From: an uncultured virus (IMG/VR IMGVR_UViG_3300031329_000004)
Taxonomy: Duplodnaviria; Heunggongvirae; Uroviricota; Caudoviricetes
Length of the DNA: 20,000 nt
IMG/VR virus record: IMGVR_UViG_3300031329_000004
Reading direction: 5' to 3' (one strand)
The notes below the pieces were generated by a model that ran no database searches, was not told where the DNA came from, and was given only the letters and a program-made list of their open reading frames with translations. Positions 1-20,000 of the stretch are shown piece after piece. How positions within the stretch are numbered: the first letter of the stretch is position 1; every line of letters starts with the position of its first letter. The position numbers and the translations under genes are program-made.

Positions 1-249
1 GAGTGAGAATACTACACAGTCACTATACCCAAGTGAAACTCGTGTGGATTATTCGATCATTGTACTGGCTCATGATCTATGCTTGACTGTACATTACTCA
101 GAGACTTTACTGTCACTCTCGACAAGTGACTTGAATCAGAGTATGACTTCTATAAACTTATAGTAGATAGCTCTGATACAGGTTATGGTATCGATAAAAC
201 TTATGGACTCACAAGAGAAGCTTGGTGAGATAATATTTCTTTAACATAA
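1..249 (+). CDS. hypothetical phage protein, 5'-truncated (code 25)
   Basis: Frame 1 is open to TAA 247-249 if TGA=Gly: ...PKGNSCGLFDHCTGSGSMLDCTL...YGIDKTYGLTREAWGDNISLT*. Confidence 0.8.
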
Positions 250-255
250 ATTATT

Positions 256-576
256 ATGAGTTATATATACTCACTACAACTTCCAGAATGACAAGAGCAA
301 AATCAATGTATACATGAGCTATGAATTAGTAAACAACTTTATAATGTAGAATATAATATATTCAATGAATCAATTAAATCATATTTAATGGAAGAAGCTC
401 TTGATAAATACTCAATTCATTTTCCAGAAATATTATTTACTATACTTGTAGAGCATGAACTCGCTGATAAAGATGATAATCTTTCAGTTATATACTGAAT
501 CAATGGAGAATCTTATGAAGCTGAAGCTGAAATAATAATTGCATATCCCGACTTCGATTCTACTTTACTTTTATAA
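256..576 (+). CDS. hypothetical protein, apparent paralog of 7036..7551
   Basis: ATG256-TAA576 in code 25; FPEILFTI...NGESYEAEAEIIIAYPDFD. Confidence 0.8.
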
Positions 577-586
577 ATATATTATT

Positions 587-991
587 ATGGATAAAAAATA
601 CCAGGTACTTATAAATCAATTAATTCAATGACATCATCTCGAACCAAAAGAGTTTGATGATTTAAGATTATATCTTGAGTCTCATATCAGAACTATAGAT
701 ATAAGAAAAAAGAATGAACTCTGAATAGAACCAGAGTTAAATCCATTCTCAAAAATAGAACAAAAAATACAATCTCAAATAGAAGATGTAAATCAAATGG
801 ATGAAGATGAACCTTGAGAATATTTATACTCTCAATATATCGATGAGCTTTGTATACAAGATCAAGAAGAATGAATGAGTCCATTAGAAGCTATTGATAG
901 ATTCGATAGTAACGAAATAGATTTTAATATCTGATTCGAGAAATGATATATTCAGTGAATGAGAGAGATGCTTAAATTATTTAATAAATAA
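587..991 (+). CDS. hypothetical acidic protein
   Basis: ATG587-TAA991; C-terminal GFEKGYIQGMREM, all three Gly encoded by TGA. Confidence 0.8.
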
Positions 992-997
992 AATCAT

Positions 998-1228
998 ATG
1001 GCTACACTAGCAAATCTTGCAGATGAATTAGAATTACCAGTAGATGAATATCTAGACTGGGTAGTAAATCTATACATAAACTGAAACAAAAAAGAATTCA
1101 TTAAAGACTTTGCAGAAGTCTGTGCTTGCTGATGATACGAAGACTTCATGGATAATCTATGAAACTTCTGACCAGAAACACAAATGAAAATTCTTAAAGC
1201 AATAGTAGAATTTACTTATAATTCTTAA
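998..1228 (+). CDS. hypothetical protein
   Basis: ATG998-TAA1228, tightly packed; MATLANLADELELPVDEYLDW... Confidence 0.8.
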
Positions 1229-1237
1229 TAAACTATT

Positions 1238-1471
1238 ATGGATAAAAATTGATATGCATCCTCTTGGCATGTATCAAATGCTGCTCAAGTTAAATTCTGT
1301 GAGGATAATAAATGCCCACATTTTGCTCCTTATAATAATTGTTATTCTTGCAATAATAGCATTTATTCTCCTCTTACTAGAAATGGAAAGATTACTTGAG
1401 TGACATTAAAAAAAGCTACTGAAGAATTAATAACTTCATGTCCTCATTGCAACAGAAGCTACTGTGATTAA
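1238..1471 (+). CDS. small Cys-rich (probable Zn-binding) phage protein
   Basis: AQVKFCEDNKCPHFAP..CYSC...ITSCPHCNRSYCD*; two CxxC pairs. Confidence 0.85.
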
Positions 1472-1488
1472 TTCTTAACTAAATTACT

Positions 1489-1782
1489 ATGCAATATCAA
1501 GTAATACAAATAGAACATTCAAATAGATTTTGAGATGTTTATACAATTAAATGAATATTTGATTCATTTAATCCTGCAAGAGAATTAATGAAAAGTTTAT
1601 ATGATAATTATATATCATATAACAAAATGTCTGACGATACAAATTATGATAATACATCTTGAGTTTCTTGTACTCATCTAGTTGAATGAGAAAACTGATG
1701 AAGAACTCCAGATCAAACATACAAAGTTGTAGAATTAGATTTCGAAATGAATCAGCCTTGTGAAATTAATATATCTGATTAA
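1489..1782 (+). CDS. hypothetical protein
   Basis: ATG1489-TAA1782 in code 25. Confidence 0.75.
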
Positions 1783-1791
1783 TTAAAACAT

Positions 1792-2028
1792 ATGAAACAA
1801 TTTATATGAGACTGTACTAACAGTCCATTCGAAGATGCAGATACATTATCTGATATAGTAGATAAAGCAGTAGAAATAACTCCTAGAGAATTTCTACTTG
1901 AATGTGAAATAGATAGCAAAGAAATACTCACAGACATAATAGTTTACTGAAGTCCTAGCTATACATTCTATAAAAGCTGAGATACATATTTTTATATGTG
2001 GTCAGCTATAGAATTTTTATATCAATAA
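1792..2028 (+). CDS. hypothetical phage protein
   Basis: MKQFIGDCTN...FYKSGDTYFYMWSAIEFLYQ*. Confidence 0.8.
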
Positions 2029-2040
2029 AAAAATATTACC

Positions 2041-2175
2041 ATGAAAGATTTAGACCAGTTAATAAAAGATGGTATGTTTAATACCTGTTGAATATATACA
2101 TGAGACATGGCTATCACTCATCCAACTATTTATATTAAAAATAGAATATTAAGATTATTAGACATCAAGTCTTAA
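2041..2175 (+). CDS. small hypothetical protein (44 aa)
   Basis: ATG2041-TAA2175 fills the gap between neighbours. Confidence 0.55.
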
Positions 2176-2215
2176 TAATAAATAACATATAATTATAATT
2201 TATAAAGATATTACT

Positions 2216-2605
2216 ATGACAACTTGAGAAACATTTATGCCACCCGAAATACAAAACAAGAAAATTGTTCTTGATGATTTAGCAAAGATGGAATTTAATA
2301 TTAAAGAAATTTACTGACTCATTGCTAGAACAATGATAGCTATGAGTTGGGGAATTAATTCTCCTGCTAATTATAGAGACAGAGTTTTATTCTTTAAAGT
2401 ACAATGATTTTTACTCAAGGGATATGTTTATATCTCTCTTGAATATGATGATACATTCACTGTATACTTTACTAAGAAAGATAAAGTCTCAGTGATACGA
2501 ATAGTTAAATGAGTTTATATAGATCAACTCATAGATATTATAGATCACTATGTAGAAAAAAATGTTAGTGACGAAGAGTATAAAAAACTTATTTCCAATA
2601 TATAA
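2216..2605 (+). CDS. hypothetical phage protein
   Basis: SWG...LFFKVQGFLLKGYVYISLEYDDTFTV...KGVYIDQLIDIIDHYVE; start could also be ATG2237. Confidence 0.8.
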
Positions 2606-2610
2606 ACATT

Positions 2611-3216
2611 ATGAAAACATGGAATGAAAATATGCTAGAGATAGCTATAGGACAATGACTTACATCCTCTAATAGAGATGTAAGAACTACAAGTATAGAT
2701 GCTTTTAAATCTCCTCACTTTAAAGATTGTATTAATAAATATCTCTGATCTAAATGATTCCCTCAAATGAATTTAGATTCATGGAAAGATACTGTTGATA
2801 AAAATTTTGATGACTCAGTATATTATTCTGAGCTTCAAGATTTTGCATATAAGTTATTAGATGCATGACTTCAAATACTTTGACCTAAAAGATCAAACAA
2901 ACAAACTTGGATAACATTCACAGATTGAACTAACATATGATATGTTCAAGCAGAATACTCTTGGTATGCATATAGTTTAAATTGTATTCCTAGTCGTAAC
3001 ACATGAAACTGATTCAGAGTAATAGACAATGCATGACTTACTATTGCAGAAGCAAAACAATGTCTTGCATCTAGACATCTATCTAACACCTTTGTTTATG
3101 ATTACAATCCTGAATATTATTCTTCTATAGAATCTTATATAGAAACAAGCCGAAGAAGATCATGGAAAAATTATGGTTACATACATCGTGACGAAGTAAA
3201 ACAATTTATTAAATAA
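2611..3216 (+). CDS. hypothetical phage protein
   Basis: 201-aa ORF in code 25; FTDGTNIGYVQ...PSRNTGNGFRV. Confidence 0.8.
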
Positions 3217-3225
3217 ATTATTATT

Positions 3226-3573
3226 ATGCTAGATCAAATTAAAAAAGAACTTAAAAAAGTTTTATGAAGATCAATAGAACATTGAGTTATTAGATATACT
3301 ATATCTGAAGATAAAGAAAAATATCTTACTATAGAATATCATGATAGAAATACTTATACTCCATCTAAAGATTGACACACATGGAAAACATTATGTTCTA
3401 CTCCATTGTTCGTTAGAAAATGAGAACTTGAATTGTGATATGAGTATGTAAATAAATATCCATCTATAGACAAACTTATAGATTGGATAGTATTTATTCT
3501 TGTAGATAAAATGCTATCATATAGTCAAGATGTAAACTGAATCCTAGATGAATATATCTTAACTAAAAAGTAA
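3226..3573 (+). CDS. hypothetical protein
   Basis: ATG3226-TAA3573 in code 25. Confidence 0.75.
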
Positions 3574-3577
3574 TAAA

Positions 3578-3886
3578 ATGAATAGAGAAACACAAGCATT
3601 ACTCTGTGAACTATGTGTGACTATCTGAAGATCAAAACATTCTAATACATTTACTGAACTGACTACAATACAGTTACTCGTTTTCTACGAGTATGTATTA
3701 GAAGTTTGTATCAAAGATACAAAACTAAAAACACTACAATCAATCTATGACTTCGTCAACAGTTGAGATATATTAGAATTATTTGCCAGACTTAAAAAAG
3801 AAATTAAGGACTGACAAAAACTACTTACTACCTGGAAAGATATTCCTAAAAAAAATAAAAAGCTAGACAAGTTGTTACAACCTTAA
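3578..3886 (+). CDS. hypothetical protein
   Basis: ATG3578-TAA3886 in code 25. Confidence 0.75.
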
Positions 3887-3892
3887 TACAAT
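3864..3892 (+). promoter_or_regulatory. sigma70-like promoter
   Basis: TAGACA-17nt-TACAAT upstream of the 3970 gene. Confidence 0.5.
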
Positions 3893-3969
3893 AAACCTAG
3901 CAATAGAAGTAATCTAAACTTTTTTCAAAAGTTAAAATATACTTATAGTTTATTTCTTAACATATATTT

Positions 3970-4695
3970 ATGCCACCAGATAAATTTTCTAAATTTTCTG
4001 TTTGAGACTTGATAGTATATCAAGATGACTATTGAGTAATAGAAGCTATACATACTCACTATATGAGAGTTTCACATAATACTCTTTGAAAAAGAAACTT
4101 TATATGAAGAGATACTCCCGATATATGCATACACATAAAAGTGAATAGTATGGTTAGATCTTTTTGATGATCACTACATTATATACTTAAACCCTGATTA
4201 AAATTAGAAATACTTAATTCTTTTTCACAACTTATATTAAGACTTGAAGATATATATGATATAGAAGTTGTTTCAAAATCTAATTGAGATTCTACTCCTG
4301 TAGCACACCCTTTAAATACTAAACCTATTACACCCATGACTAATTTTATACAACAAAAAAAGAAAGATGATTTCTTAAATAGTAAAGCTAAAATCAATAA
4401 GGTAGAAAAAATATCTAATGAACTAGATGCTTCTACTAAACTTGTTCGTGAAGCTCGAAGATCACTAGAACATATTGAAGATAAAATGAATTATCTTGTT
4501 CAACAAAAAGAAAGCGCTATTAACAACTCAGATATTGATACTCTTGAGAATCTTATCTTGGATATTCCAGAGATATTAAATACTCTTGATACAGAGATAT
4601 TAAAATCATTTGTTAAAGATCTTGTAAAGACTCCATCTGTTAAATCTAAAAGAGATACAGAATCTCCTAGAGAATATTTTTGACTCAAAGATTAA
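3970..4695 (+). CDS. hypothetical protein with C-terminal coiled coil
   Basis: KFSVGDLIVY N-terminus; includes track ORF 4336..4683 in frame and reads through TGA4681 to TAA4695. Confidence 0.8.
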
Positions 4696-4698
4696 TTA

Positions 4699-4733
4699 TA
4701 AAAAGCCTACGATAATACTTAGGCTTTTTATTT
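4699..4733 (+). terminator. rho-independent terminator
   Basis: TAAAAAGCCTA-10nt-TAGGCTTTTTA immediately after the stop codon. Confidence 0.75.
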
Positions 4734-4763
4734 TACATTAATTTATTATTAAAACATAAACAC

Positions 4764-6098
4764 ATGACTAAAAAATTACTACTATTTATTCTTGTTATCA
4801 TATTAATCCTATGAGTATTTACTTATATGGATTATACATCTCTAGATTCACAGATCGCAAGAGCTGATGATACTAGAAAAGAAGTTGCTGAATCTTTAGC
4901 TTACACTATTCATATAGATAGTTTAAAGAACTCAGACTCTGAAGCTTTAATCTCATTAGAGCAACAAGCTATACAAGAGAGAAACATTGAGATTAAAAAC
5001 AATCAATGATGTATGGCTGCTAACTATGCACTCAAAGGTACGACAATCGCTCCTGTGAGTTGTGACGAAACATTAGGTATGTTATATCCTAGTGAATTAT
5101 TCTATACATTTAAAGTATCAGATAATCCTGTTATATCACAACATGAAGAAAATCATTTTCATAAATGAGCATGATGAATGTTAGCAACAGATATAGCAAC
5201 ATCATTCTGACAAGCAGAACAATTCGCTCTAGATTATTTCTGAGAAGTAAAAGCATATACAGTTCGATCATTTCAAAATGAATGTGTTGATGATATACTA
5301 GATGATTTTTATCCTAATGAATCTCAAGGTTGTAAAAACTGGAAGACTCATTTATGAAATCATATAGAATTATCATTCAATCATAAATGAGAAGATATGA
5401 AATTTGTACTGTGACACATCGATAGTAAACTCTCTGATGGTGACATAGTCTTTACAGGACAAAAGATCTGACAGACTAATGTAACAGGTACTACAACAGG
5501 CCATCATGTTCATATAGAACTATGGTCTTGAAAACATAACATATCATACTCAGTAAGAAATAAAGAATTACTAGAATCAAGAAGTGCAGATCCAATTAAA
5601 AAAGAGACAACAACTTCTACTGAATCTACTAATGATTTTACTTATACTCCTATCGTTGGTGACGGAAACTTATCACCAGACTCTCAGAAATATAAAGATG
5701 CATGAGAAAAATATGGTATAGATTGGAGAATGATTTCAGCAATACATTGTACTGAAACATTTGATATCAAAGCTAAGAGTTGTAGCAGACATACTAAATC
5801 ACCAACATCATCAGCATGAGCGCAATGATGTATGCAATTTATGCCAAAGACTTGGACTTGATGGTTAGCATCTAGTACATGATACTGAGTAGATGGTGAC
5901 TGAGACTGAGTAGCAGATATACATAACTGTATGGATGGTATACATTCTGCTGCAAACAAACTCTCATCAAATTATAACAAGTTCATATCTGAATGAAGTA
6001 CTCCAGAACAAGCAAGATGGAAAGCATACAGACAATACAATCATGCAAATTGGTATGCAGATCGTGCAGCTAATATCTTTAATACTTTAACAAAATAA
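4764..6098 (+). CDS. membrane-anchored/secreted M23 peptidase + lytic transglycosylase (SLT) fusion, 444 aa
   Basis: N-terminal hydrophobic helix; M23 motifs LGNHIEL, GDIVFTGQKIG..TG.TTGHHVHIEL; SLT motifs YGIDWRMISAIHCTET, SSAGAQGCMQFMPKTW, YGVDGDGDGVADI, YNHANWY; about 21 in-frame TGA. Confidence 0.9.
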
Positions 6099-6103
6099 TT
6101 CTT

Positions 6104-6331
6104 ATGTTACAACTAGAAGCAGACAAAGATTGTTTTGATACAGTCATAGCATTGAAGCATGAGATACAAGCTATAGCTTCTATCTATCAGAATGATTGAG
6201 AAGTAAACCTAACTCAAATGCTTAATCATAATCAAAAGATTATGGATGTTATGACTACTCTATCATCAATGAAGTTTAGCTTAAAAGAAATCAAAGCAGA
6301 AACAAATAATTTTTTATCTTCTAATATATAA
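6104..6331 (+). CDS. hypothetical protein
   Basis: ATG6104-TAA6331. Confidence 0.7.
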
Positions 6332-6429
6332 TGATGAAACAATTAATATTTATAAAACATAAAGATCCATTCAAAGGAAGACAAACTCTTCCTGTAAATG
6401 TAAACTGAAAAATAATTCATAACAAATAA
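6331..6429 (+). CDS. 32-aa peptide similar to the C-terminus of the next gene
   Basis: TAATG stop/start overlap; DPFKGRQTLPVNVNGKIIHNK. Confidence 0.55.
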
Positions 6430-6431
6430 TT

Positions 6432-6629
6432 ATGAAAGATATTTTTAATATAAAAAAAACTCCTGCTACTACTGAAGCAATAAACAAACTCATTACTAAA
6501 TGGACTAATCTATTGCTTAAGTATGAAACAATGAAAGTTCCAATACAAAATAAGACACCTTCAAAATGAAGAGTGTCTGTACCTGTAAATATATTTAAGA
6601 ACTGAAAGCTTATTCAAATAAATAAATAG
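6432..6629 (+). CDS. small basic hypothetical protein
   Basis: ATG6432-TAG6629; TPSKGRVSVPVNIFKNGKLIQINK. Confidence 0.7.
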
Positions 6630-6706
6630 TTATGAAACTCTAATAACTATTTGCTTTTAAACATACTCCGATTATTATATATCAGTATATTATAACAACC
6701 TATACT

Positions 6707-7030
6707 ATGAATGATGTATATGAAATTCAATTGATTGTAGGAAAGAACATCTCTACTAAAAACATTGCAGACAATAATGTATCTATCTTCGTAAGTATTC
6801 CAACAAACCTATATAATGTTATACATAAATATGTAAACAAAGTTTTGGAATTACATCTTACTAAGTGAGGTACATCTTTTATATTGAACTGCAATATTAA
6901 TAATGATGGATCTACTCCTATAATGTACAATGCAAAAGAATGACATTGAGTTTTAAAACTTGATGTAATACTAGAAGATAAAATGGTACTATGATATATA
7001 GTATCATCTGATTTATTCCTTAAGATATAA
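6707..7030 (+). CDS. hypothetical protein
   Basis: ATG6707-TAA7030 in code 25; weak TTGCTT-16-TATTAT upstream (6651-6678). Confidence 0.65.
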
Positions 7031-7035
7031 TCCTT

Positions 7036-7551
7036 ATGTGATATTATACTAAGCATGAAATAGATTTGACTCCAGAACAAGAATGTAAAAAAGATCAGTA
7101 TCTTAAAGAGATAGAAATAATCTCTTGATACTTCAATCCTTTTGAAAATGTATGTAAATGGTATGAAAGATCTACTGATATGTGTGCATTCTCTCTACTA
7201 CATCCAGAAGAAGTATTTACTATCTACTGACATTGAGAAGAAGACTTAGATAAATGGATAGCATACTATCATAATTGAAATGAACAACAAGAGAAAGCAG
7301 AAATATCTATAGTATATCCTGAATATAATTCTGATAAGCTACTCAATGTAGATTCTACTTCAATGAATAGAACTGTTAAGCAGGCTCTCAAAGATTATAA
7401 TACTATAGTCAATTCATCTATGACTCTTGAAGTTCATAAGACAGTTACACACCAAACTTATAAGTGTACTAAATGTTTAAAAACATTCTCCGAAGACGAT
7501 GTAGAAGTTCAATGAAGATGTCCTAAATGTTTTGAAGATAATAATTCCTAA
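7036..7551 (+). CDS. hypothetical phage protein with C-terminal Zn ribbon
   Basis: MGYYTKH...CKWYE..DMCAFSLLHPEEVFTIYGHGEE..DKW..YYHNG; C-terminal CTKC...GRCPKC. Confidence 0.85.
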
Positions 7552-7564
7552 TCATATAATCCTT

Positions 7565-8980
7565 ATGATCAAATCTATAAAGATAGATTACCCAGAATAC
7601 TGAGTCAAAGTATCAGAAACATTCTGACCTTGAGTCAATGTATTAGAAAAACCTAATGGATATGGTAAGACTATAATCCTTAGAACTATTCTCTCTGCAT
7701 ACTCTGGAACATTCATATGATCTAGAACTCTTCCATCTGGAAGTGCTGAGATAATCCTAGACGACAAGACTCTTATGATGTCTAAGTCTATGTGGATTGG
7801 AATAGACAAAGTGAATGCTATAGCAAAACATATAATGCCTTGAGCATTTATGGATCTCTCTACTCCAGAACAAAGGAAGACTATTGTAGATCTCTTAGAG
7901 ATAGATAGACTCTGATTCTTATCCTCAGCTTTTGATTGATTCTTATCAGCAAAAGGTGTATGAGAAAAACAAGAAGATGGTAGTATCATTACTACTATCA
8001 AATACTCTGACACTCTTGCTAAAGAAACAAAGCAATCTATTGCTGAATCTAAATGAAAAGAAGATCAGCTTCTCTCAGATATTACTAGGCTTCAATGAAA
8101 TATTAACTCATTCAAAAAGAAAGAGTTTAAAGACATTGATAACTATAATATCTTTGAACAAGAAGTAGTAAGACAATGGTCCGAACTTGTATCTGGCCAT
8201 CAAGAGAATGTAAGAAAATCTAACTCAGATAAATCTTTATTAGAATCTAATAAAGCTGCATTACTCAAAGAGTATTCTGTATTACAATCTCAACTTAATG
8301 GAACATGTCCTACATGTAATCAATCTATAGATGTAGATACTACAGCTATTAACTCTAAGATAGATCAGAATATTACAGAGTGAAAAGAGATCGCAGATAA
8401 ACTTAGTAAGTTTAAAACTCTTGATGCTCTTCCTATTCTTAATACCTTAGAAGAGAAAGCTAAACATCTAGCAATGGAGATTCCTAAGAAACCTGCAGAA
8501 GCTAGATATACTGAGCAACATGATTATAATAATCAATTGCAATCTCAGAAGTTTACCAATGAAGAACTTGAACTTAAGAAGAAAGATCTTCGTGAACTAT
8601 GAGAACTAGATAATCAAGCTGTACTAGATTGTATAGATAGAGCTCAGAAAGAATTCACTAAAACTCTTGAAAAGAAAATCTCATCACTCTGATTAGAGAT
8701 TGAATTATTCAAGACTCAAAAGAATGGTACAGTTAAAGAAACATTCAATGTATCTTTAGATGGTAAACCATACTCAGAACTCTCTCAATGAAATAAGATT
8801 ATCTTACAAGTAAAGATGGCTCTTGTATTCATTAAGAAGTTATGACTAGACTTCATGCTCATTGATGAAGCAGGTACACTAGGACAAGAATCATTTGATA
8901 TGATTGTTAAAGCTTGTAGTGAATTAGATTCTAATATCCAAATCATTGCAATGCGACCACCATACTTCAAAGTAAAATAA
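7565..8980 (+). CDS. Rad50/SbcC/SMC-like ABC ATPase with Zn hook, 471 aa
   Basis: Walker A PNGYGKT, coiled coils, central CPTC, signature-like LSQG, Walker B FMLIDEAG. Confidence 0.85.
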
Positions 8981-10988: not shown

Positions 10989-11037
10989 TATTCTATACTG
11001 AGTATTTCCTAAATAATATATTATTAATTACAACATT

Positions 11038-11527: not shown

Positions 11528-11570
11528 ATCTATATATGTAACACCTCCTCAAACAACAATAACAATCCAA

Positions 11571-11610
11571 TAAAAGAGATGACTTCTCCAATGAAGTTCA
11601 TCTCTTTTTA
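11571..11610. terminator. bidirectional terminator-like hairpin
   Basis: AAAAGAGATGACTTC-TCCAAT-GAAGTTCATCTCTTTTT (one bulge). Confidence 0.7.
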
Positions 11611-12105: not shown

Positions 12106-12134
12106 CCTCCACCTCCCCTACCTCCACCAAATAA
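12106..12134. repeat. degenerate copy of the 30-nt repeat
   Basis: CCTCCACCTCCCCTACCTCCACCAAATAA: two A>T changes and one insertion relative to the exact copies. Confidence 0.75.
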
Positions 12135-12191
12135 TTAATCTTATTACATTATTCTCTTTATTATTAATATACATTAATAATAAAAAACCCA

Positions 12192-12220
12192 TTTATATAT
12201 ATATAACATATATATATAAA
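12192..12220. repeat. perfect AT inverted repeat
   Basis: TTTATATATATAT-AAC-ATATATATATAAA. Confidence 0.85.
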
Positions 12221-12254
12221 AACCCCCCAACAATATAATATCCCATATTATATT

Positions 12255-12560
12255 GACCCCACAACCAAAACAACAACAACAACAAACACCAAAAACACAC
12301 TGACCCCACACCCCTAAACAGACAACACCAAAACAACAAACAACAACAACAACAAGACACTAACCCACAAACAAACAAACAAACAAACAAACAACAACAA
12401 ACAAAACACAAACAACAAACAACAAACAACAACCTAGATATACGATATTAAGAAAACCCCAAACCCCCAATACCCCACACACAAACAAACAAAACAAACC
12501 ACCACCTCCCCACCACCACCAAATAAAAAAAAATAAAAACAAATAAAATATATAAAAAAC
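12255..12560. repeat. low-complexity (CAA)n/(CAAA)n tract, nearly G-free on +
   Basis: Visible imperfect tandem CAA/CAAA units. Confidence 0.9.
12499..12528. repeat. 30-nt direct repeat copy 2
   Basis: Identical to 11253-11282. Confidence 0.9.
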
Positions 12561-12741
12561 AAACAAATATAAAATAATAGATGACGAAGAAGTAGCAGCA
12601 GCAGCAGCAGGGGTAGTAGATGGACCAGAAGTAGTAGTAGTAAGATGTACTCCTCCCCCCAGTCAAACAGTAGGGGTACAATTACTATATATATAATTAT
12701 TATAAAATTTGTGACTTTTAAAATTTTTTGAAGTATATAAT

Positions 12742-12772
12742 AAAAAAGGCCTCCACCTTTTGTGGATAGCCT
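12742..12772 (-). terminator. rho-independent terminator closing the - strand block
   Basis: Minus strand AGGCTATCCAC-AAAAG-GTGGAGGCC-TTTTTT. Confidence 0.7.
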
Positions 12773-12813
12773 ATTATGATCAAATGTATTTGTATATAAT
12801 AATTCTTTGAATC

Positions 12814-13014
12814 TTATGGTCTATTCAATATCTTTCTGATCTCTGATACTGCATGCTCTCTCAGCTCTTGTATATCGCTGTCTATGTAACTTATATCTTT
12901 ATAAGTTCTAGAGCATCAATCTATGAGTATTGCATTGTCATGGCCCTGTCATAGAGTATTACCCATATGATATCAGTATCATGTATCTGCATCGTAGAAT
13001 ACTGTAAGTTCCAT
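12814..13014 (-). CDS. hypothetical protein (66 aa)
   Basis: MELTVFYDADTGYGYHMG...; TAATG overlap with the upstream gene. Confidence 0.7.
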
Positions 13015-13178
13015 TATTCTTTAATATGATTAATAAGTATATAGCATGCTCACATACATATAACAAAGCCAAGCCAGTCTCATATACCTAATCTGTATAT
13101 TCATAATCAGAATAGTATGAGCACTCATATGGTATGGAAGAAACTATAGAATTCTTCTCCTGTAGTTTTTTCTCTCAT
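13014..13178 (-). CDS. small membrane protein (54 aa, about 2 TM)
   Basis: FFHTIGVLILFGLGIYRLGIGDWLGFVICMGACYILI. Confidence 0.7.
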
Positions 13179-13182
13179 AATT

Positions 13183-13425
13183 TTATGTTAAAGGGTTATT
13201 TCTATCTATAAGACATCAGCATTCGCATTCAATTGTAGAGCCTTTGCTTTTATTCATTTCATTATTACATACAGGACATTTATATGTACTCACATAAAGA
13301 TCTGCATATTCCTCTAATGAGTAAAATATTCATGATTTAAGTTGTGAGATATCATAAGAATTAAAAACCTTATCTGGATTTTCACTTATAAATTCTTCAA
13401 CTATTTGAGATACTAATTCCTGCAT
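13183..13425 (-). CDS. Zn-ribbon protein (80 aa)
   Basis: CPVC...ECECG. Confidence 0.75.
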
Positions 13426-13427
13426 AA

Positions 13428-14006
13428 TTATTTTTTAAATATATATTTGATTCTCTGCCATAGGCTCATAGATTTGAATCTAGCATTCTCTTCTGCAATA
13501 GTTTTAATAGTATGACCAATATAAAATTCACAAGGATCTCCAGATATATTTTTACTTATTGGATCTAATAAATCTGCAAAAGATTTTTCTTTTTCTTTCA
13601 TTCTCTTTGAGAAATTTTTCTCACTTATATCAACTTCTAATAAAGAAGATTTCTCCTTAGCATCAATACGAGCCTTAGAACTTTTCTCAAGTTCCTTGAT
13701 TCGCTCTTTATCTTTGAGAGCATCTTTATAAAGTTTATCAGATTGTTTCTGAATGTCTTTCTCAATCTTAGTTGCTGTAACAGCAAACTCTTTTGAAAGT
13801 TTATCAAAGTATTGTGAAACTCATTCTACATTTTTTATGTAGACTGTATCAGATCTTTTCTGCATAGAACATAATCCACTATCTGCAAAATCAATTCACA
13901 TGATATATGCTGTAGTTCTATGGAATCAATCTTTTATTAGATCCTTTTGAAGACCTATAAGTCTATCGTAAGTCTCTCTCTCTAGTGTAACAATATTAGT
14001 GTCCAT
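13428..14006 (-). CDS. coiled-coil hypothetical protein (192 aa)
   Basis: Open in code 25; ends SMSLWQRIKYIFKK*. Confidence 0.8.
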
Positions 14007-14008
14007 AA

Positions 14009-14476
14009 TTATTTTTTTAAAATATAAGGTTTATCCCAGATCATCATTACTCTATATGATTTATGAAAATCTTTGAGTATCTTAGTTTCTTTATCTGTGA
14101 TAATGCTGCTGATAAAATTTTGTCTTTCTTGACTTGTAATATCTCATACAGCTCCAGAAAGAATAATACTTATTACAAATGCATGCTCTGCTTGAGACTT
14201 AACATCATAGATCATTTCTTTTGTGACTCTCCCAAAATCAATGTTCTTTACTCATATAGGAAAAGGCATAGTCTTTATAGCTCTATTCTTTTTCTTATTA
14301 AATACTGTACAGTCCACGACCAAAGGAATCTTTTGATGACTCGTATCAACTTCATCAATAACAGCATGAGCAATTTCATTCAAGTCTTCGTTATCAGATT
14401 TATTTATTAGATCTTTAACTCATGCCATCTTGCTTGCAATGCTATCTCAATATATAACAGGATCTTTAGTGCTCAT
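14009..14476 (-). CDS. hypothetical protein (155 aa)
   Basis: ATG14476-TAA14009 in code 25. Confidence 0.8.
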
Positions 14477-14496
14477 GATTATAAATATTTGTAATT

Positions 14497-14526
14497 AAAA
14501 ACCCCTAGCACAAAGTGTTAGAGGTT
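14497..14526 (-). terminator. rho-independent terminator
   Basis: Minus strand AACCTCTAACAC-TTT-GTGCTAGGGG-TTTTT. Confidence 0.6.
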
Positions 14527-14553
14527 GTGCTTGTAAGTAAAAGATGTAAGTTG

Positions 14554-14952
14554 TTATGCTTTCTTTTCAGATACTTCTTCTAGCTTGATATCCCAAGTAG
14601 ACTTGATGACACAAGATCTTTTAAGTTCTTGTTTGAAAAATTCAATAGTGAGCTCTGCTCATTTCTTTGTATCTTTCATATCTGGAACTGCCATATAACC
14701 TGCCTCAAGAAGCTTGTTATTAGCATATTGATAATCCATAGGAAAACTTTTTTCCTCTGTTACAACATCTCCATTCTCAATTTTAAGATTACCATCATCT
14801 CATTTCACAGCAACTTCTGCTGTATAAGATGCAGGAAGATTCAGAAATTCTGCAATCTTTTCAGTCATCCATTTAATTCCCTCATCTCCAAGAGCTGCCT
14901 CAAGAGATTCTACTTGTCTATTCATACCTTGGTAAAAATCCGAATTCATCAT
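14554..14952 (-). CDS. hypothetical acidic protein (132 aa)
   Basis: MMNSDFYQGMNRQVESLEAALG...STWDIKLEEVSEKKA*. Confidence 0.8.
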
Positions 14953-14977
14953 AATATTATATGATTATAAAAATAAA

Positions 14978-15256
14978 TTATTTAGAGTTTAACTCTTTCC
15001 TAAAGATCTGACTCGTTCTAATACGCAGCACCTTAAAAGGTTGTGTCTGCATTGGAGTCTTATTAATTGGGTGCAACAGATTCCTCGGTTGCTGCTCAAC
15101 TACTTCTAGTTTCATTAAAGATCTAAAATCAATAACTGTACCATCCATAAGTGTCTCTTTTATTGTTTCAACAAAAGTATCATAGATTACTGCAGCCTTA
15201 ACTTTAGAAATCTCTAATTTCCTAGCAAGTTTAGCTATCATCATTTTTCTATTCAT
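14978..15256 (-). CDS. HU/IHF-family DNA-binding protein (divergent)
   Basis: 92 aa; MNRKMMIAKLA...SK..A...YDTFVETIKETL..G..IDF...R...HP.....M.....K...RTSQIFRKELN matches the HU fold pattern. Confidence 0.8.
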   Translation of the reverse strand: MNRKMMIAKLARKLEISKVKAAVIYDTFVETIKETLMDGTVIDFRSLMKLEVVEQQPRNLLHPINKTPMQTQPFKVLRIRTSQIFRKELNSK

Positions 15257-15285
15257 TTTCTTTATTACTATATAAGAGTACAGTT

Positions 15286-15313
15286 ACTATATAGGTATTG
15301 AATAACAATGCAA
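15286..15313 (-). promoter_or_regulatory. sigma70-like promoter of the HU-like gene
   Basis: Minus strand TTGCAT-16nt-TATAGT directly after a terminator. Confidence 0.55.
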
Positions 15314-15315
15314 AT

Positions 15316-15347
15316 AAAAAAGACTAAGATATATTCTTAGTCTTTTT
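15316..15347 (-). terminator. bidirectional rho-independent terminator
   Basis: AAAAAAGACTAAGA-TATAT-TCTTAGTCTTTTT. Confidence 0.8.
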
Positions 15348-15356
15348 AGCATAATA

Positions 15357-15656
15357 TTATTTATGCATATCAAGAACTGCTCCCCAGTTAGAAGTAGCCA
15401 ACTCTTCATAGTTGTCTCTTCTCTTTTTGAACATAGCTCTTTCCTCATCAGTATCTTCAATATCATCTTTCAGAAATGCTATCATAGCATCTCGTCTAGC
15501 TCTAAACATATTTGCTTGAGCTTTAAATGTAAGAGAAACTCTTTCAGTAGATTCACTAGAGCTTTCAGCATCGCTATCATCTCTATTAAGATGTGCTGCT
15601 CTTTTTACTTCATCCTCTGTAAGAGGAACAATCATTTCTAAAACATCTGTTGGCAT
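15357..15656 (-). CDS. hypothetical acidic protein (99 aa)
   Basis: Track ORF 15357..15674; more likely start is ATG15656 in aattATG context. Confidence 0.75.
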   Translation of the reverse strand: MPTDVLEMIVPLTEDEVKRAAHLNRDDSDAESSSESTERVSLTFKAQANMFRARRDAMIAFLKDDIEDTDEERAMFKKRRDNYEELATSNWGAVLDMHK

Positions 15657-15702
15657 AATTGTATATTTATACAAATAAAATTAAGGTGTTAGCCTTGAAA
15701 CC

Positions 15703-15730
15703 ACTATAACTATAAGTGAAGTAAATACAA
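15703..15730 (-). promoter_or_regulatory. sigma70-like promoter
   Basis: Minus strand TTGTAT-16nt-TATAGT directly after a terminator. Confidence 0.55.
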
Positions 15731-15732
15731 AT

Positions 15733-15759
15733 AAAAAAAGAGAGAGCCGAAACTCTCTC
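15733..15759 (-). terminator. strong rho-independent terminator
   Basis: Minus strand GAGAGAGT-TTCG-GCTCTCTC-TTTTTTT. Confidence 0.9.
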
Positions 15760-15788
15760 AGTTAAAACAGGGATTATACCACTAGCTT

Positions 15789-15923
15789 CTACGAGCTAGG
15801 GAGATTAAGATCACCTCCTTTCTTGAATGGATATGGAGGGATATCAAGATCCATCTCCAGTTGGTCGCTCTCTTTGTATTTCTGACCTCTGCAGAAAACG
15901 AAACCGATAAACTTCTTAATCAT
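15789..15923 (-). CDS. 44-aa ORF with canonical SD and internal 16S-3'-end complement
   Basis: AGGAGGT 7 nt upstream of ATG; MIKKFIGFVFCRGQKYKESDQLEMDLDIPPYPFKKGGDLNLPSS*. Confidence 0.6.
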   Translation of the reverse strand: MIKKFIGFVFCRGQKYKESDQLEMDLDIPPYPFKKGGDLNLPSS

Positions 15924-15998
15924 TTTTATAACCTCCTAGTTGGCCTCCACTCACAGGTTATTCTGCTTACGGAGAAAAATACCAGAAATTAATCTGGG

Positions 15999-16616
15999 CT
16001 ATGTAACTCAATTAGGATTCAAAGCATCTGTAGCTTCTGATGATCTTCGTCTTAAGATTCAATTCTCTCTCTTATATTGTTTTACAAGTCATTCACTTTC
16101 TTTGAGTTTCTGATTTAGAATATCAGCATTCTCTCATATAAGTGAATCTTTCCAAGTTTCAAATGATCCATATCCAGATACTTTAAAAAAGTTATCTCCT
16201 ATATCCCATTTTCTTGTAGAGTAATCTCTATGACGAATTACATTTTCTTTTGGAATATTATATTTCTTCATAAGATGTATTACCCATTCTCTCGTAGAAT
16301 CACACGCAGCTCGTGTAAAATTCTTTCCATCAGAAACAACCTCAAGTCAAATTGAATGAGCATTGATATTATTCAAATATCATTTGATCATATCTCATAA
16401 TCCTGCATGCCAAAGAATATAATCCTCAGTTCCTATTCTTCCAGTCTCTCCATTAGGACCAATAACTCAATGACAAGATACCTGTTTAGGATGCTGAGAT
16501 AAATAAGAAAGCATTCATTTATAAGAACCTCATCCTGTATGATGCAGCATTATAAAAGTTTTTGAGTTTACTCATCTGGATTTCTTTGATGTTCAAACAT
16601 CATCTGTAAATTTCAT
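15999..16616 (-). CDS. N-acetylmuramoyl-L-alanine amidase (Amidase_2-type endolysin), 205 aa
   Basis: IMLHHTG, VSCH.VIG..G, LWHAG, NAHSIGLEV, NVIRHRDYSTRKWD. Confidence 0.9.
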
Positions 16617-16635
16617 ACTTTAAATTTAAAAAATA

Positions 16636-16875
16636 TTATCTCATTTCCTCCATATCAACTTGATCTGACATAACTATTTTCTTAGTTACAGAAACTTCTT
16701 CTGGATCAAGCCCAAGTCTCTTAGTAGCAAATGATGTAAAGATTGCAATGAATCATGCACCAAAACCAAATAATGCTAATCTATGTTCTTCTGGAGAAAA
16801 GAATGATCCTGCTATGAATCCTATTCATAAAACAAGTATAATTCATAGAAGTATGTAATAATCTAATTTATTCAT
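16636..16875 (-). CDS. putative holin (79 aa, 2 TM, charged C-terminal tail)
   Basis: YYILLGIILVLGIGFIAGSFF / LALFGFGAGFIAIFTSFA; directly upstream of the amidase. Confidence 0.6.
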
Positions 16876-16891
16876 AATGTATATTTAAAAA

Positions 16892-17284
16892 TTATAATTC
16901 AACTGCGTACACCTGTACCATTTCTCCATCTTTTTCTTCGTGCTCTACATCAGCACCTCAATGATCTTCGTCTTCTCAAGTAAGAACTTCTTGAGTACTT
17001 TTCATCTCTTTAAACCAATCAATGAAATCCATCATAGCAAATTCAAGCCTAAGATTCTTAGGATTAGAATATTCTGTTTTTCATTCATGAAGAACATCTC
17101 GTAAACATTTATGTACATCTTCTTGATTAGAATCATCTGTCATCAGATCAATTCTATGAAGAGTAAGAAGAACAAAATCTTTATGCTCTTTGAGATCTTG
17201 TTCCATATCTGGACCAATATCTGCCATTCACTCAATGAAAGATTCAACTTCATTAGTGAATTCTTTATCTGAAAAGAATACCAT
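16892..17284 (-). CDS. hypothetical acidic protein (130 aa)
   Basis: ATG17284-TAA16892 in code 25. Confidence 0.8.
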
Positions 17285-17361
17285 ATGTAAAAATTTATTT
17301 ATAAAAACTGCATAACTATATTACTTTTCAAAGGAATAATTGCAAATTTTGAATTTTAAAT

Positions 17362-17389
17362 TTGACGGATCTAAAATAATAAATATATT
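17362..17389 (+). promoter_or_regulatory. sigma70-like promoter of the tRNA cluster
   Basis: TTGACG-16nt-TATATT in the divergent intergenic region. Confidence 0.55.
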
Positions 17390-17447
17390 CAAATCAATAA
17401 ATAACTTGTGATAAGGACGCAGGTAGTTCGGAATCAAAAAGTTTTTC

Positions 17448-17476
17448 CCTCTCAGTCCTTATCTGAGAGGTTTTTT
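17448..17476 (+). terminator. terminator hairpin just upstream of tRNA-Pro
   Basis: CCTCTCAG-TCCTTAT-CTGAGAGG-TTTTTT. Confidence 0.7.
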
Positions 17477-17480
17477 ATTT

Positions 17481-17558
17481 CTAGGTATAGCTCAGTCTGG
17501 CCAGAGCACTCGGTTTGGAACTGAGGAGTCGGAGGTTCAAATCCTCCTACCTTGACCA
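17481..17558 (+). tRNA. tRNA-Pro(TGG)
   Basis: Cloverleaf: CTAGGTA/TACCTTG acceptor (one mismatch), D arm GCTC/GAGC, anticodon arm CTCGG-TTTGGAA-CTGAG, T arm GGAGG-TTCAAAT-CCTCC, encoded CCA. Confidence 0.95.
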
Positions 17559-17559
17559 T

Positions 17560-17634
17560 TACGGAATAGAGTATTGGTAACTCATCTGCTTCATACGCAG
17601 AAACATGTAGGTTCAAATCCTGCTTCCGTAACCA
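17560..17634 (+). tRNA. tRNA-Met(CAT) (elongator Met or Ile2)
   Basis: TACGGAA/TTCCGTA acceptor, anticodon arm TCTGC-TTCATAC-GCAGA, T arm GTAGG-TTCAAAT-CCTGC, encoded CCA. Confidence 0.9.
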
Positions 17635-17637
17635 TTT

Positions 17638-17719
17638 GAGCACTAGACCTTGTAGATGTAAGAATACAAGGGGGAAAAGAATCTTAGTAGATAGGTGCAA
17701 TCCCTATCGGGGCTCTCCA
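17638..17719 (+). ncRNA. non-canonical tRNA-like RNA
   Basis: GAGCACT/GGGGCTC acceptor-like stem + T + CCA; T-like arm GATAGG-TGCAATC-CCTATC; no standard D/anticodon geometry. Confidence 0.6.
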
Positions 17720-17786
17720 TATTTTTAAACAAACAACTTTATAAATGAAAAATATATCTGAAATAAATTTTGATTAGTAGCAATGA

Positions 17787-17816
17787 AGCATATCTATTTT
17801 ATAGGTATGCTTTTTC
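17787..17816 (+). terminator. rho-independent terminator after the tRNA cluster
   Basis: AAGCATATCTA-TTTTA-TAGGTATGCTT-TTT. Confidence 0.7.
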
Positions 17817-17829
17817 TTGTTAATCAAGA

Positions 17830-18112
17830 ACTGATACCAGAGTATAAACTGGGGTACACTACGAGGTTATAACTAGCTCGTAGATCAATATCTAAGTAAA
17901 TCAGTATAAATAATCTTAGGGGAGCTTGTTATTGCCGACACGATCAGCATACTGTCATAACAAGTCTAGCATGGAGAGGCTATAGGATAATGACCTAGAA
18001 ACTACCCTAGTACCTTACTCAATATGAGAGCTGCATAATGCAGCCTAGTAAGCGAAGTTAAACTACCTCAAATCTATGAGGGGGTAGGGGGAGCTTTGCA
18101 CTCTTCTCCTAA
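17830..18112. ncRNA. candidate structured non-coding element
   Basis: GC-enriched stretch with no convincing ORF found and many nested helices (see findings). Confidence 0.4.
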
Positions 18113-18216
18113 CACCTGTCATAACATTTCTTCCCTAGTTAGACTTAGTTAGATATATAATATAATATAAATAATAATATAGTCTACCTAATAAAACATC
18201 TATAACTATAATAGTT

Positions 18217-18244
18217 TTGACACTTTCTAATAAAATATTAGTAT
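18217..18244 (+). promoter_or_regulatory. sigma70-like promoter of the replication genes
   Basis: TTGACA-16nt-TAGTAT. Confidence 0.55.
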
Positions 18245-18273
18245 GAGTCTACTATTATTTTTTTATTAGATCT

Positions 18274-18480
18274 ATGAAACTATCTCAACTTGAATGATCC
18301 AATACTAAAGTTATTCCTAAATCTATTTGGAATACTTTGAGTAAAGAAAAACAAATGCATTTTAGATTATGCGAACTTAAGTGACTTCCTCTTACAACAA
18401 CCGAGAAAACTCTTAATATTATTTTACAACCAAGAAAAAATGAATCACTACAAGCTGCACACGAAGCAAAGAAATCTTAA
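18274..18480 (+). CDS. small basic hypothetical protein (68 aa)
   Basis: ATG18274-TAA18480 in code 25. Confidence 0.6.
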
Positions 18481-18928
18481 GTCTCTTATAGAATCTTATG
18501 AAGAATCGTTTCATGACTTTGATAAAATTATTTGATCAGTAGATGCTCTTGAAAAAAAGATTATAAAAAAATCTTTGGAATCTCTTGAGTGAGTCAGAGA
18601 ATCAATACCTACTGAGCTGCATGTAACATCATATATGCCAGAACATCTTTGGCTTCCAGATGAAATAAAAGACTGGGAAGAAACTACAGGATTTACTTTC
18701 TCTCTCAGATGAGAATGTTTATGACTGGATTCAAGTAATGAATATCTTTTATATGAACGAAATAAGATTCTCAAGTGAATGAATACTGGTAATGAACCTA
18801 AGCTAGAATGAATATGAATTATATTAGATAGGCTAGAAAAAATGTTTGATTATGCTGTAAGAAACGAAAGACCTATAAAATCTTTTATGTGAACTTTTAA
18901 TACATTTACTTCTGGGAAGTATGACTAA
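18440..18928 (+). CDS. hypothetical protein (162 aa)
   Basis: ATG18440-TAA18928 in code 25; overlaps both neighbours slightly. Confidence 0.7.
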
Positions 18929-20000
18929 TCTCTCTAATTATGCCAAAGATAACCGAACAACAGCTCAAGTTAATAAAGACTATGATCAATGAAAAATACA
19001 TGAGGAAGCTTTTAAAAATAAGTGTGAGGGTAAAGTTCAGATACTCAATGATAATGTGAGTGATACATTCTGAACAACCTCACAATATGTATGGGACTTC
19101 ACTATTGAATGATTTAGAATTGAGTACAAATACTCACAAATACCTCTCAAGTTTGTTGAATGGAAAAAGAATCAATACCAACATGCCAAAAAGAAATGAG
19201 TGTATTTTATTCAAGAAGACCCAGAATGATACTTCTTTATATCTCCCTACGACTCTAAAGAATACTTGGAAATATGATACTGCAATAAACCTACTTGGAA
19301 ATTCTCTCCAGAAAAACTAAGCTTTGAACAATTACTTTCTAAAATAAAATCTATGAATCTACTTATTGAATCTATAAAAGATATATCTTTCAAAGAAGTT
19401 CTTACTGCTGCCGGTATAAAATATGAGGACCGGACAATTCATCTGGACCTCTATACTAAAAGTAATTCAGAACTTTCATCTGGATGGAAAGCAAGTCTTG
19501 AAGATAATATAGTTTCTGATTTCTCTCACAATAGAGCTACTTGAAATCCATATGATTTTATCCAGAAGTTATTCTGATACTCAGAACAAGAAACAGTTGA
19601 ATGGTTCAAATCTAAATGGCCTATGCTACAAGATGATAAAAAAGTAGAAGTAGCTCCTACTGATATGGTAGTTCCAGAAGATATGGTTTTAACTTATGAT
19701 ATGAAAACTATATCTGATAAGTGGGATTCACTTCAATGATGTACTCAAGATCAAATTATCTATATGGAAAATAGATGAATAGATTATTCTAAAATTACTG
19801 GAATAGTAAGAAATATGGAATGAAGAATATGAGCTCCAATCCAATGATGGGTATGAGAAGAATTCGGAATGCTTACAATTCAGAGTAGAGATATTCACTC
19901 CAGACAATTCAGAATCATGAAAGGCACAAAGTCTAAGTGAGTCTTTATGCATTGAATCAATCCTAAGATAAAACATATCTATGTAGTTGAATGATTATTT
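18921..20000 (+). CDS. PD-(D/E)XK nuclease-like domain fused to DnaG-like TOPRIM primase, 3'-truncated
   Basis: N: GKIHEEAF...WDFTIEGFRIEYK; from ATG19353: GNPYDFIQKLFGYSEQETVEWF, YMENRGID, TOPRIM start IYVVEGLF at the window edge. Confidence 0.8.

Follow-up and report, generated by a model that had tools for sequence, protein, structure and literature searches.

The stretch of DNA analyzed here, a 20,000-base window from an uncultured virus (IMG/VR record IMGVR_UViG_3300031329_000004), has a G+C content of 30% and yields only short genes when TGA is taken as a stop codon. Under table 11 it holds 28 open reading frames (ORFs) of at least 60 amino acids, the longest of 141, and a greedy set of non-overlapping ORFs covers just 0.38 of its length. 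Reading TGA as a sense codon raises this cover to 0.868, which exceeds what is gained by the same treatment of TAG (0.548) or TAA (0.681), so the effect is specific to TGA. Genes then tile three blocks, one on the plus strand at 1-10780, one on the minus strand at 13183-17284 and one on the plus strand at 18290-20000, and the gaps between genes are mostly of -20 to 187 bases, with three exceptions of 2402, 1005 and 324 bases. A prediction made earlier from the sequence letters (the original prediction) had held that the genes tile with short gaps once TGA is sense and had proposed comparing coding density under alternative codes; the figures above agree with it. The evidence set out below supports the conclusion that TGA is a sense codon here and stands for glycine (Gly), as in genetic code 25. 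The features of the window are the following, with profile scores, where given, for TGA read as Gly (G), X or tryptophan (W):

1-6087, plus strand: left arm, with 13 small genes that received no function by family match and the M23/SLT hydrolase gene; TGA is sense throughout
4764-6098, plus strand: membrane-anchored peptidoglycan hydrolase with Peptidase_M23 and SLT/SLT_2 lytic transglycosylase domains; 21 TGA codons; matches endolysin PHROGs
6331-6432 (33 amino acids) and 6432-6629 (65 amino acids), plus strand: two small paralogous ORFs, with K-GGA-R at 6373 aligned to K-TGA-R at 6564
7036-7551, plus strand: phrog_6306 protein, a paralog of 256-576; 6 TGA codons; G 57.7, X 42.9, W 37.6 bits
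7532-8980, plus strand: SbcC-like ATPase (phrog_77, expectation value (E) 1.2e-19); 15 TGA codons; G 71.4, X 55.0, W 51.0 bits
9152-10780, plus strand: three genes, the first two belonging to the uncharacterized phage families phrog_4273/37721 and phrog_16527 and the third closing the plus-strand block
10781-13182, no strand: 2.4-kilobase (kb) non-coding gap where two gene blocks converge, in a genome otherwise about 95% coding
13183-17284, minus strand: inverted block of nine genes
14978-15256, minus strand: HU-like DNA-binding protein, with no TGA and a single Gly codon
15999-16616, minus strand: Amidase_2 endolysin; 12 TGA codons
16636-16875, minus strand: holin candidate of 79 amino acids with two hydrophobic helices, directly upstream of the endolysin
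17481-17634, plus strand: tRNA-Pro(UGG) and tRNA-Met(CAU), the only transfer RNAs (tRNAs) of the window, in the divergent gap between the inverted and primase blocks
18290-18928, plus strand: first gene of the right-hand block, uncharacterized; 9 TGA codons
18921-20000, plus strand: N-terminal 360 of the 751 amino acids of a T7 gp4-type primase-helicase; 17 TGA codons in the window, with a Toprim motif VVE-TGA-LF at the window end

The labels "early," "lysis" and "replication" attached to these blocks by the original prediction are reasonable, the named enzymes being the only part of them that rests on family matches. The small two-helix membrane protein encoded next to the endolysin gene is likewise a candidate holin, judging from its helices and its position.

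All 31 complete genes end in TAA (28) or TAG (3), as had been predicted, and 29 of them contain TGA in frame. The 159 TGA codons of these complete genes are spread evenly along their length (37, 32, 29, 35 and 26 in successive fifths) without a pile-up toward the 3' end, which excludes leaky stops followed by back-up stops. Counting all 32 genes of the window (5066 codons), there are 180 TGA, 87 GGN and 51 TGG codons, so that TGA makes up 67% of the Gly codons and is the commonest of them. Selenocysteine insertion or read-through at single sites is ruled out by the presence of 180 TGA codons in 32 genes, and decayed pseudogenes are ruled out because the frames are open and conserved. Recoding is thus window-wide, as first proposed, but its intensity is uneven: the left block has TGA at 74% of its Gly codons, the inverted block at 47% (Fisher p 1.5e-4).

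The more specific claim that the residue inserted is Gly is borne out by profile scores, motifs, homolog columns, codon pairs and amino acid composition, with which a tRNA of one relative, described further below, agrees. For the amidase and the M23/SLT protein, TGA was set to each of the 20 residues and to X, and the resulting Pfam scores were compared, in bits:

Amidase_2: Gly 81.0, next Thr 78.6, X 75.7, Trp 72.7
SLT_2: Gly 38.6, next Glu 25.6, X 20.5, Trp no hit
Peptidase_M23: Gly 30.4, next Ala 27.7, X 21.8, Trp 17.9
SLT: Gly 28.8, next Trp 25.6, X 20.2

Four further window proteins were scored against PHROG families with TGA read as Gly, Trp, X, Ala or Ser, and for all five families concerned (phrog_16527, 77, 4273, 37721 and 6306) Gly scored highest and Trp lowest; the genes in 9152-10780 gave their best scores with Gly at 65.2, 47.3 and 92.8 bits. 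Gly is therefore the best reading in nine of nine Pfam and PHROG families found on window genes, and Trp is the worst or nearly the worst in eight of the nine. The same ranking is seen in a near-identical relative, a 60,427-base IMG/VR contig (G002) that was reached through an exact 47-mer and matches window positions 6088-20000 at 99.957% identity over 13,913 bases. When TGA in its genes was read as Gly, Trp, X, Cys, Arg, Ser, Leu or Ala, DnaB_C scored 69.4 bits with Gly, 59.3 with X and 47.6 with Trp, and PIF1 scored 97.5, 85.4 and 77.5 bits, respectively. Neither the amidase nor the M23/SLT protein, each searched with X at TGA, matched any PDB sequence.

The five motifs in which TGA had been noticed at likely Gly positions are all present, namely SSAxAQxCMQF and YxVDGDxDx in 4764-6098, SIxLE in 15999-16616, VVExLF at the window end and CYGxF in 9861-10304 (x marks TGA). 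In addition, the Walker A motif of the primase-helicase reads LLxAATxVxKS, all three of its glycines being TGA. Composition points the same way: Gly makes up 5.3% of codons when TGA is included and 1.7% when it is not, and Trp stands at 1.0% but would rise to 4.6% if TGA encoded it. Codon pairs between two window genes and their diverged orthologs in the relative include 18 in which TGA faces another codon, which is GGN in ten and TGG in none. Both of the internal paralog pairs singled out by the original prediction could also be confirmed. The C-terminus of 6432-6629 recurs in the ORF at 6331-6432, TGA in the former facing GGA in the latter as listed above, and the N-GGA of 256-576 faces the N-TGA of 7036-7551, both of these genes belonging to phrog_6306; the latter alignment is weak, and its other five TGA pairs do not involve Gly.

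The obvious competitor is a reading of TGA as Trp (code 4), which is used by Mycoplasma and Spiroplasma and by many recoded gut phages and which would make this the phage of such a host. A public protein collection in fact places Trp at TGA in both the window amidase (P0001) and the primase-helicase of the relative (P0007, 95% identity), but the homologs of the latter protein argue strongly otherwise. A phmmer search with the 751-residue primase-helicase against 1.84 billion representative sequences gave 3363 matches at E <= 0.001, of which the best 149 non-self matches were re-aligned to the query with X at TGA, and 148 aligned. Fifty-nine of these 148 have a peculiar composition, with a mean of 5.9% Trp and 2.3% Gly, and carry Trp at the invariant glycine of Walker A (22 hits); they have the look of additional TGA-recoded sequences whose database translation used Trp. 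The remaining 89 homologs contain 1.1% Trp and 6.0% Gly, and the residues they show opposite each class of query codon are as follows, the TGA class comprising 22 columns that are each covered by at least ten homologs:

TGA columns: Gly 43.2%, Trp 0.4%
GGN columns: Gly 42.5%, Trp 1.2%
TGG columns: Gly 1.5%, Trp 13.1%
All other columns: Gly 3.0%, Trp 0.8%

The TGA columns of the primase-helicase resemble Gly columns and not Trp columns. Gly is the plurality residue in 13 of the 22 and Trp in none, and at the TGA of the Toprim motif (column 358) 18 of 20 normally composed homologs have Gly. The original prediction had named a preponderance of Trp at TGA positions in homolog alignments as the result that would overturn it, and the Trp frequency found there is the 0.4% given above.

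Several observations nevertheless weigh against Gly or against the way in which the test was done. The separation of the homologs into two groups by Trp content, with a cut at 3%, was our own choice, and when all 148 are taken together the 29 covered TGA columns contain 15.1% Trp along with 29.5% Gly. Nine of the 22 columns have a plurality residue other than Gly. In the amidase, for which a homolog search with X at TGA returned six matches, one of them the window's own product, the TGA at codon 50 of 15999-16616 (CHxVIG) aligns with Tyr in five of five homologs (S-x-H-Y-V), a position that Trp would suit better than Gly; other TGA codons of the same gene stand opposite Thr or Val at position 8 and Asn at position 34, and one more is ambiguous because of an indel. 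Finally, Trp is the second-best reading for Pfam SLT (25.6 versus 28.8 bits). Non-Gly columns at some TGA codons are expected of a common codon at variable sites. When these points are set beside the profile scores, the 0.4% versus 13.1% Trp at TGA and TGG columns, the lack of a single TGG among 18 ortholog codon pairs, the distorted composition that would result and the three Walker A glycines that would become Trp, we regard the Trp reading as having next to no chance of being correct. All of the tests run support Gly (code 25), and Trp is rejected. As a separate observation on the amidase, Gly at the Tyr-aligned position would be an unusual substitution in the core of Amidase_2.

Within the window itself the phage features are confined to the endolysin, the holin candidate and the primase-helicase, and the virion genes that identify the element as a virus were found in its relative and not in the window, which weakens the case for this piece of DNA taken by itself. 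The relative was rated 98% complete by CheckV and is 95% coding when read in code 25. Its two ends overlap, the final 359 bases being 98.9% identical to the first 359, so the contig closes on itself. Among its products are a large terminase (phrog_2, E 6.5e-14), a 1375-residue tail fiber protein, RusA, an exonuclease, a PIF1 helicase and the complete primase-helicase, in which Toprim_2 and DnaB_C domains are found. Its 449-residue product at 8128-9477 is predicted to be an HK97-fold major capsid protein: a structure model with a predicted local distance difference test (pLDDT) score of 75 had the capsid protein of Vibrio phage VP1 as its best Foldseek match (E 5e-16), followed by that of phicrAss001 and, lower down, HK97, and phage capsids and encapsulins fill the top ranks listed among 235 PDB chains matched at E <= 0.001. 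As expected of a member of the Caudoviricetes, the relative combines a large terminase with a capsid protein of HK97 fold. Pfam and PHROG scans of its ORFs revealed neither a cellular core gene nor an integrase, so the picture that might have undone the original prediction, cellular core genes unaccompanied by virion genes, is the reverse of what was found; its identification of the DNA as viral is upheld through this 99.96% identical relative, with its terminase, capsid and tail fiber.

These findings also bear on the idea that the window comes from a prophage, plasmid or island in the chromosome of a code-25 bacterium and not from a free phage. Prophages of such bacteria use code 25 as well (Liu et al. 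2023, PMC10746230, in its available text), and the HU, M23 and amidase genes of the window are host-like. The end overlap by which the relative closes on itself and the lack of an integrase or cellular core gene among its ORFs speak against this idea, as does the fact that scans of 185,579 reference genomes for two of its proteins turned up no relative. Moreover, five further IMG/VR genomes that carry the capsid gene were all rated 100% complete at 59.6-67.2 kb, and three of them have direct terminal repeats. We therefore consider a chromosomal origin very unlikely. By our assessment it is highly probable that the window represents 20 kb of a tailed double-stranded DNA phage genome of about 60 kb that is written in code 25 and belongs to a type of host that reads UGA as Gly.

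The capsid gene places this phage in a wider family. Homologs of the capsid protein, itself not counted, number 74; they share 30-57% identity with it, the contigs that encode them reach 67 kb, and 39 of the 74 have less than 1% Trp and 23 at least 2%. The five complete genomes are all TGA-recoded, their cover rising from 0.21-0.63 under table 11 to 0.91-0.99. One of these is a distant relative of 59,648 bases (L015) that is of similar size, has direct terminal repeats, shares a capsid protein of 36% identity and is likewise TGA-recoded (0.29 versus 0.91). Sense TGA is sparser in a 35,975-base IMG/VR contig (L011, G+C 34.6%) that encodes an amidase 57% identical to that of the window and has a cover of 0.766 under table 11 versus 0.942 when TGA is sense. 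The lineage lies far from isolated phages, since the primase-helicase is just 22-28% identical to T7 gp4-type enzymes over 53-62% of its length and a tblastn search with the terminase found no match among 50,697 phage records. A single query of IMG/VR with the primase-helicase retrieved only the same relative contig. Like the T7 gp4-type enzymes of Fusobacterium phage phiFN37, cyanopodoviruses and pelagiphages, this protein joins a Toprim domain and a DnaB-like helicase in one chain; unlike them, it has an additional N-terminal region of about 270 residues, and the rest of the genome is unrelated to theirs.

How TGA is decoded can be approached through the tRNAs of these genomes. Neither ARAGORN nor Rfam detected a tRNA(UCA) in the window or in the whole relative, which has tRNA-Pro and tRNA-Met only, and the relative yielded neither a release factor nor an aminoacyl-tRNA synthetase. 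Decoding must then come from the host, which would supply a tRNA-Gly(UCA) and would lack release factor 2 activity on UGA. Gracilibacteria and Absconditabacteria (SR1), which belong to the candidate phyla radiation (CPR), are the only bacteria known to read UGA as Gly. A member of this group is the probable host, given the code, the absence of tRNA(UCA) from the near-identical relative and the literature. This assignment has points against it. Alignments of the amidase and M23 proteins against the 185,579 reference genomes gave pattern matches at 34 and 229 places, respectively, none of which was confirmed, so these scans gave no direct link to a host. The window's own genome extends at least 20 kb farther to the left in one assembly, where run X1 has a 22-kb contig ending at window base 1474, and could carry a tRNA(UCA) there, as one relative does. 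A language-model atlas search with the HU protein recovered only a mixture of phyla and was uninformative on the host. The DNA itself is present in nine listed sequencing runs, two of which may be its source, and all nine are labeled as salt lake metagenome and date from one year; no RNA runs are among the listed holders. The two candidate host lineages also occur in hypersaline habitats (Jaffe et al. 2021, in its available text).

The relative with its own tRNA(UCA) is a 67-kb family member (G003), in which a 75-nucleotide tRNA (L018, 1261-1335, minus strand) lies beside tRNA-Cys and tRNA-Met. ARAGORN labels it "SeC," a label that derives only from the anticodon, and its acceptor end has G1-C72, C2-G71, G3-C70 and U73, which we take to be the bacterial tRNA-Gly identity set. 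Its existence is one reason to ask if the phage might infect a bacterium with the standard code and switch the code by means of its own suppressor tRNA, as the TAG- or TGA-recoded crAss-like and Lak phages do. The fact that the window's own genome has been seen only in part is a second reason, and a third is that some code-25 phages have matching spacers in non-CPR bacteria, including two of five such Absconditabacteria phages (Liu et al. 2023, PMC10746230, in its available text). The remaining genomes, however, offer little room for such a scheme: the near-identical relative is 98% complete and lacks the tRNA by two methods, and the four other complete relatives have no tRNA whatever. In addition, 29 of the 31 complete genes contain TGA, and every block begins with genes that do, so nothing could be made before the switch in a cell that stops at UGA. 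Such a proportion fits the figure of about 90% given for code-25 phages whose hosts use code 25 themselves, and not the 26-71% of phages of standard-code hosts (Borges et al., preprint 10.1101/2021.08.26.457843, in its available text). We thus judge self-switching to be improbable, and favor decoding by a host that itself reads UGA as Gly.

Code-25 phages have been described before, and the present one is best regarded as a well-supported addition to them. Borges and colleagues reported such phages, some with predicted Absconditabacteria hosts and with in-frame TGA in about 90% of genes (10.1101/2021.08.26.457843), and Liu et al. described phages linked to both lineages through clustered regularly interspaced short palindromic repeats (CRISPR); according to the available text of the latter report (2023, mBio, PMC10746230), most of 50 Absconditabacteria phages clearly use code 25 and six do not, and 34 of 38 Gracilibacteria phages show only a small change in coding density. 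The phage studied here shares with the published ones, as far as the available text of both reports goes, the dense TGA, the large rise in coding density when code 25 replaces code 11, the placement of TGA at Gly and the lack of need for a phage suppressor; it differs in that their hosts were assigned through CRISPR spacers, whereas here the host is suggested by the code. Phages of standard-code hosts that use code 4 or code 15 (TAG = Gln), such as the crAss-like and Lak phages, also read a stop codon as sense in a low-G+C genome. According to the same available preprint text (10.1101/2021.08.26.457843), their recoding falls mainly in late and lysis genes, and many of them carry suppressor tRNAs. 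In the present phage, by contrast, the residue is Gly, TGA occurs in all three blocks and neither the window nor the near-identical relative has a suppressor. The description of this group as poorly sampled in the original prediction is therefore only partly right, both because code-25 phages are in print and because 59 of 148 primase-helicase representatives look recoded.

The present case is of value as a well-controlled example in which a phage and its presumed CPR host use the same rare code, UGA = Gly. A salt lake is also a habitat label absent from the available text of the published accounts of code-25 phages, in which "hypersaline," "salt," "capsid" and "RNA polymerase" have no occurrences. 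A more practical consequence concerns databases. Because the public protein collection translates TGA of this phage as Trp, and some 40% of the closest primase-helicase representatives seem to have been misread likewise, annotation of and homology searches with this group of phages are systematically distorted.

Comparison of the window with its relative also shows that the phage is a mosaic. Positions 1-6087 are absent from the relative, the only match being 157 bases at 72% identity, and the products encoded there are 38-55% identical to those of the syntenic genes of the relative. At position 6088, ten bases before the stop codon of the M23/SLT gene, the alignment changes abruptly from no DNA similarity to 99.96% identity, and the M23 protein of the window carries an SLT domain where that of the relative has another C-terminus. 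Both forms of the junction occur in salt lake runs. In one run (X1), a 4704-base contig equals window positions 1459-6162 with zero differences, although this run may be the source of the window and its contig is then not independent support; in another (X4), a contig matches only from 6102 on, and the 215 unlike bases before that point have the form of the relative. By these alignments the window genome is a recombinant in which a right-hand 13.9 kb nearly identical to the relative is joined to a diverged but syntenic left arm of 6.1 kb that also uses code 25. At least two code-25 phage lineages therefore recombine in these lakes.

The capsid gene is unusual in how little TGA it contains. In all six family genomes in which it was examined, TGA accounts for 0-30% of its Gly codons versus 40-86% in the other genes within 10 kb (Fisher p 3e-6 to 1e-13), the capsid loci being 8128-9477 in the near-identical relative (L012) and around 10001-11350 in the other five (L013-L017):

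L012: TGA at 0 of 33 capsid Gly codons; neighbors 59%
L013: 1 of 34; neighbors 40%
L014: 7 of 30; neighbors 86%
L015: 5 of 31; neighbors 80%
L016: 1 of 30; neighbors 66%
L017: 10 of 33; neighbors 79%

This avoidance, and the presence of a tRNA(UCA) in one relative, suggest that the decoding of TGA limits very high expression. One possibility is that TGA is a costly Gly codon in this family and that its use is tuned to expression, a pattern for which the TGA-less HU gene and the highest share of TGA in the left block (74%) can also be cited in addition to the capsid genes and the tRNA. We hold this idea only tentatively and think it somewhat more likely to be wrong than right. The G+C content at third codon positions of the relative's capsid gene is 0.224 versus 0.16 in other late genes, a comparison that does not separate codon bias or a foreign origin from selection against TGA. 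The idea also runs counter to the suggestion that dense TGA reflects codon optimization (Liu et al. 2023, PMC10746230, in its available text). In the titles and abstracts listed by literature searches there was no mention of code-25 organisms avoiding TGA in their capsid or highly expressed genes. If the idea is correct, the supply of tRNA-Gly(UCA) in code-25 hosts would limit high-level translation. The capsid avoidance and the tRNA(UCA) of one relative offer a way to test how efficient the decoding of a reassigned stop codon is in nature.

The long gap at 10781-13182 stands out from the otherwise compact genome. Between 11200 and 12700 the plus strand consists of 45% A, 23% C, 24.5% T and 7.3% G, with low-complexity arrays of AAC/ACAA at 12254-12577, and a motif rich in C, about 28 bases long and close to CCACCACCTCCCCACCACCACCAAATAA, occurs in three copies near 11251, 12104 and 12497. 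A terminator-like hairpin that could act in both directions lies at 11120-11142. No convincing ORF was found in the gap under any code with one or two stops, its long frames being attributable to base composition; Rfam reported nothing at its curated threshold, and blastn of the gap against phage records gave no match. The gap may contain the ends of the genome or a packaging site, serve as an origin of replication, or offer the termination factor Rho a loading region that is rich in C and poor in G.

Some further features are recorded here as side observations. In the relative, an ORF of 3961 codons at 15225-27110 lies between the primase-helicase and terminase genes. Its product has DFDAD at residue 2236, where DFDGD is the consensus of its three homologs, the only full-length ones found, and a proline nine residues upstream fits what we take to be the spacing of the catalytic loop in the beta-prime subunit of RNA polymerase. 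In giant two-barrel RNA polymerases of the crAss-like type, a DxDxD motif that binds metal lies within a double-psi beta-barrel domain. The 3961-residue protein has no match in Pfam, PHROG or PDB sequences, and a structure model of residues 1950-2550 reached a pLDDT of only 35. Directly 5' of the two tRNAs in the window, 17343-17476 on the plus strand gives a sub-threshold match to the Rfam family manA-II (41.2 bits versus a curated threshold of 100, E 2e-4) and closes with a terminator-like hairpin at 17448-17470. On the other side of the tRNAs, about 650 bases without an ORF (17640-18289) separate them from the right-hand block; this stretch has a higher G+C content than its surroundings and several hairpin-like runs, and it has no Rfam match. 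Matches to sigma-70-like promoters are not enriched in the window (113 versus 131.6 expected). Terminator-like hairpins, on the other hand, are enriched, with 22 found versus 4.4 expected from shuffled sequences, and pairs of them flank the region of the HU gene at 15317-15347 and 15740-15759.

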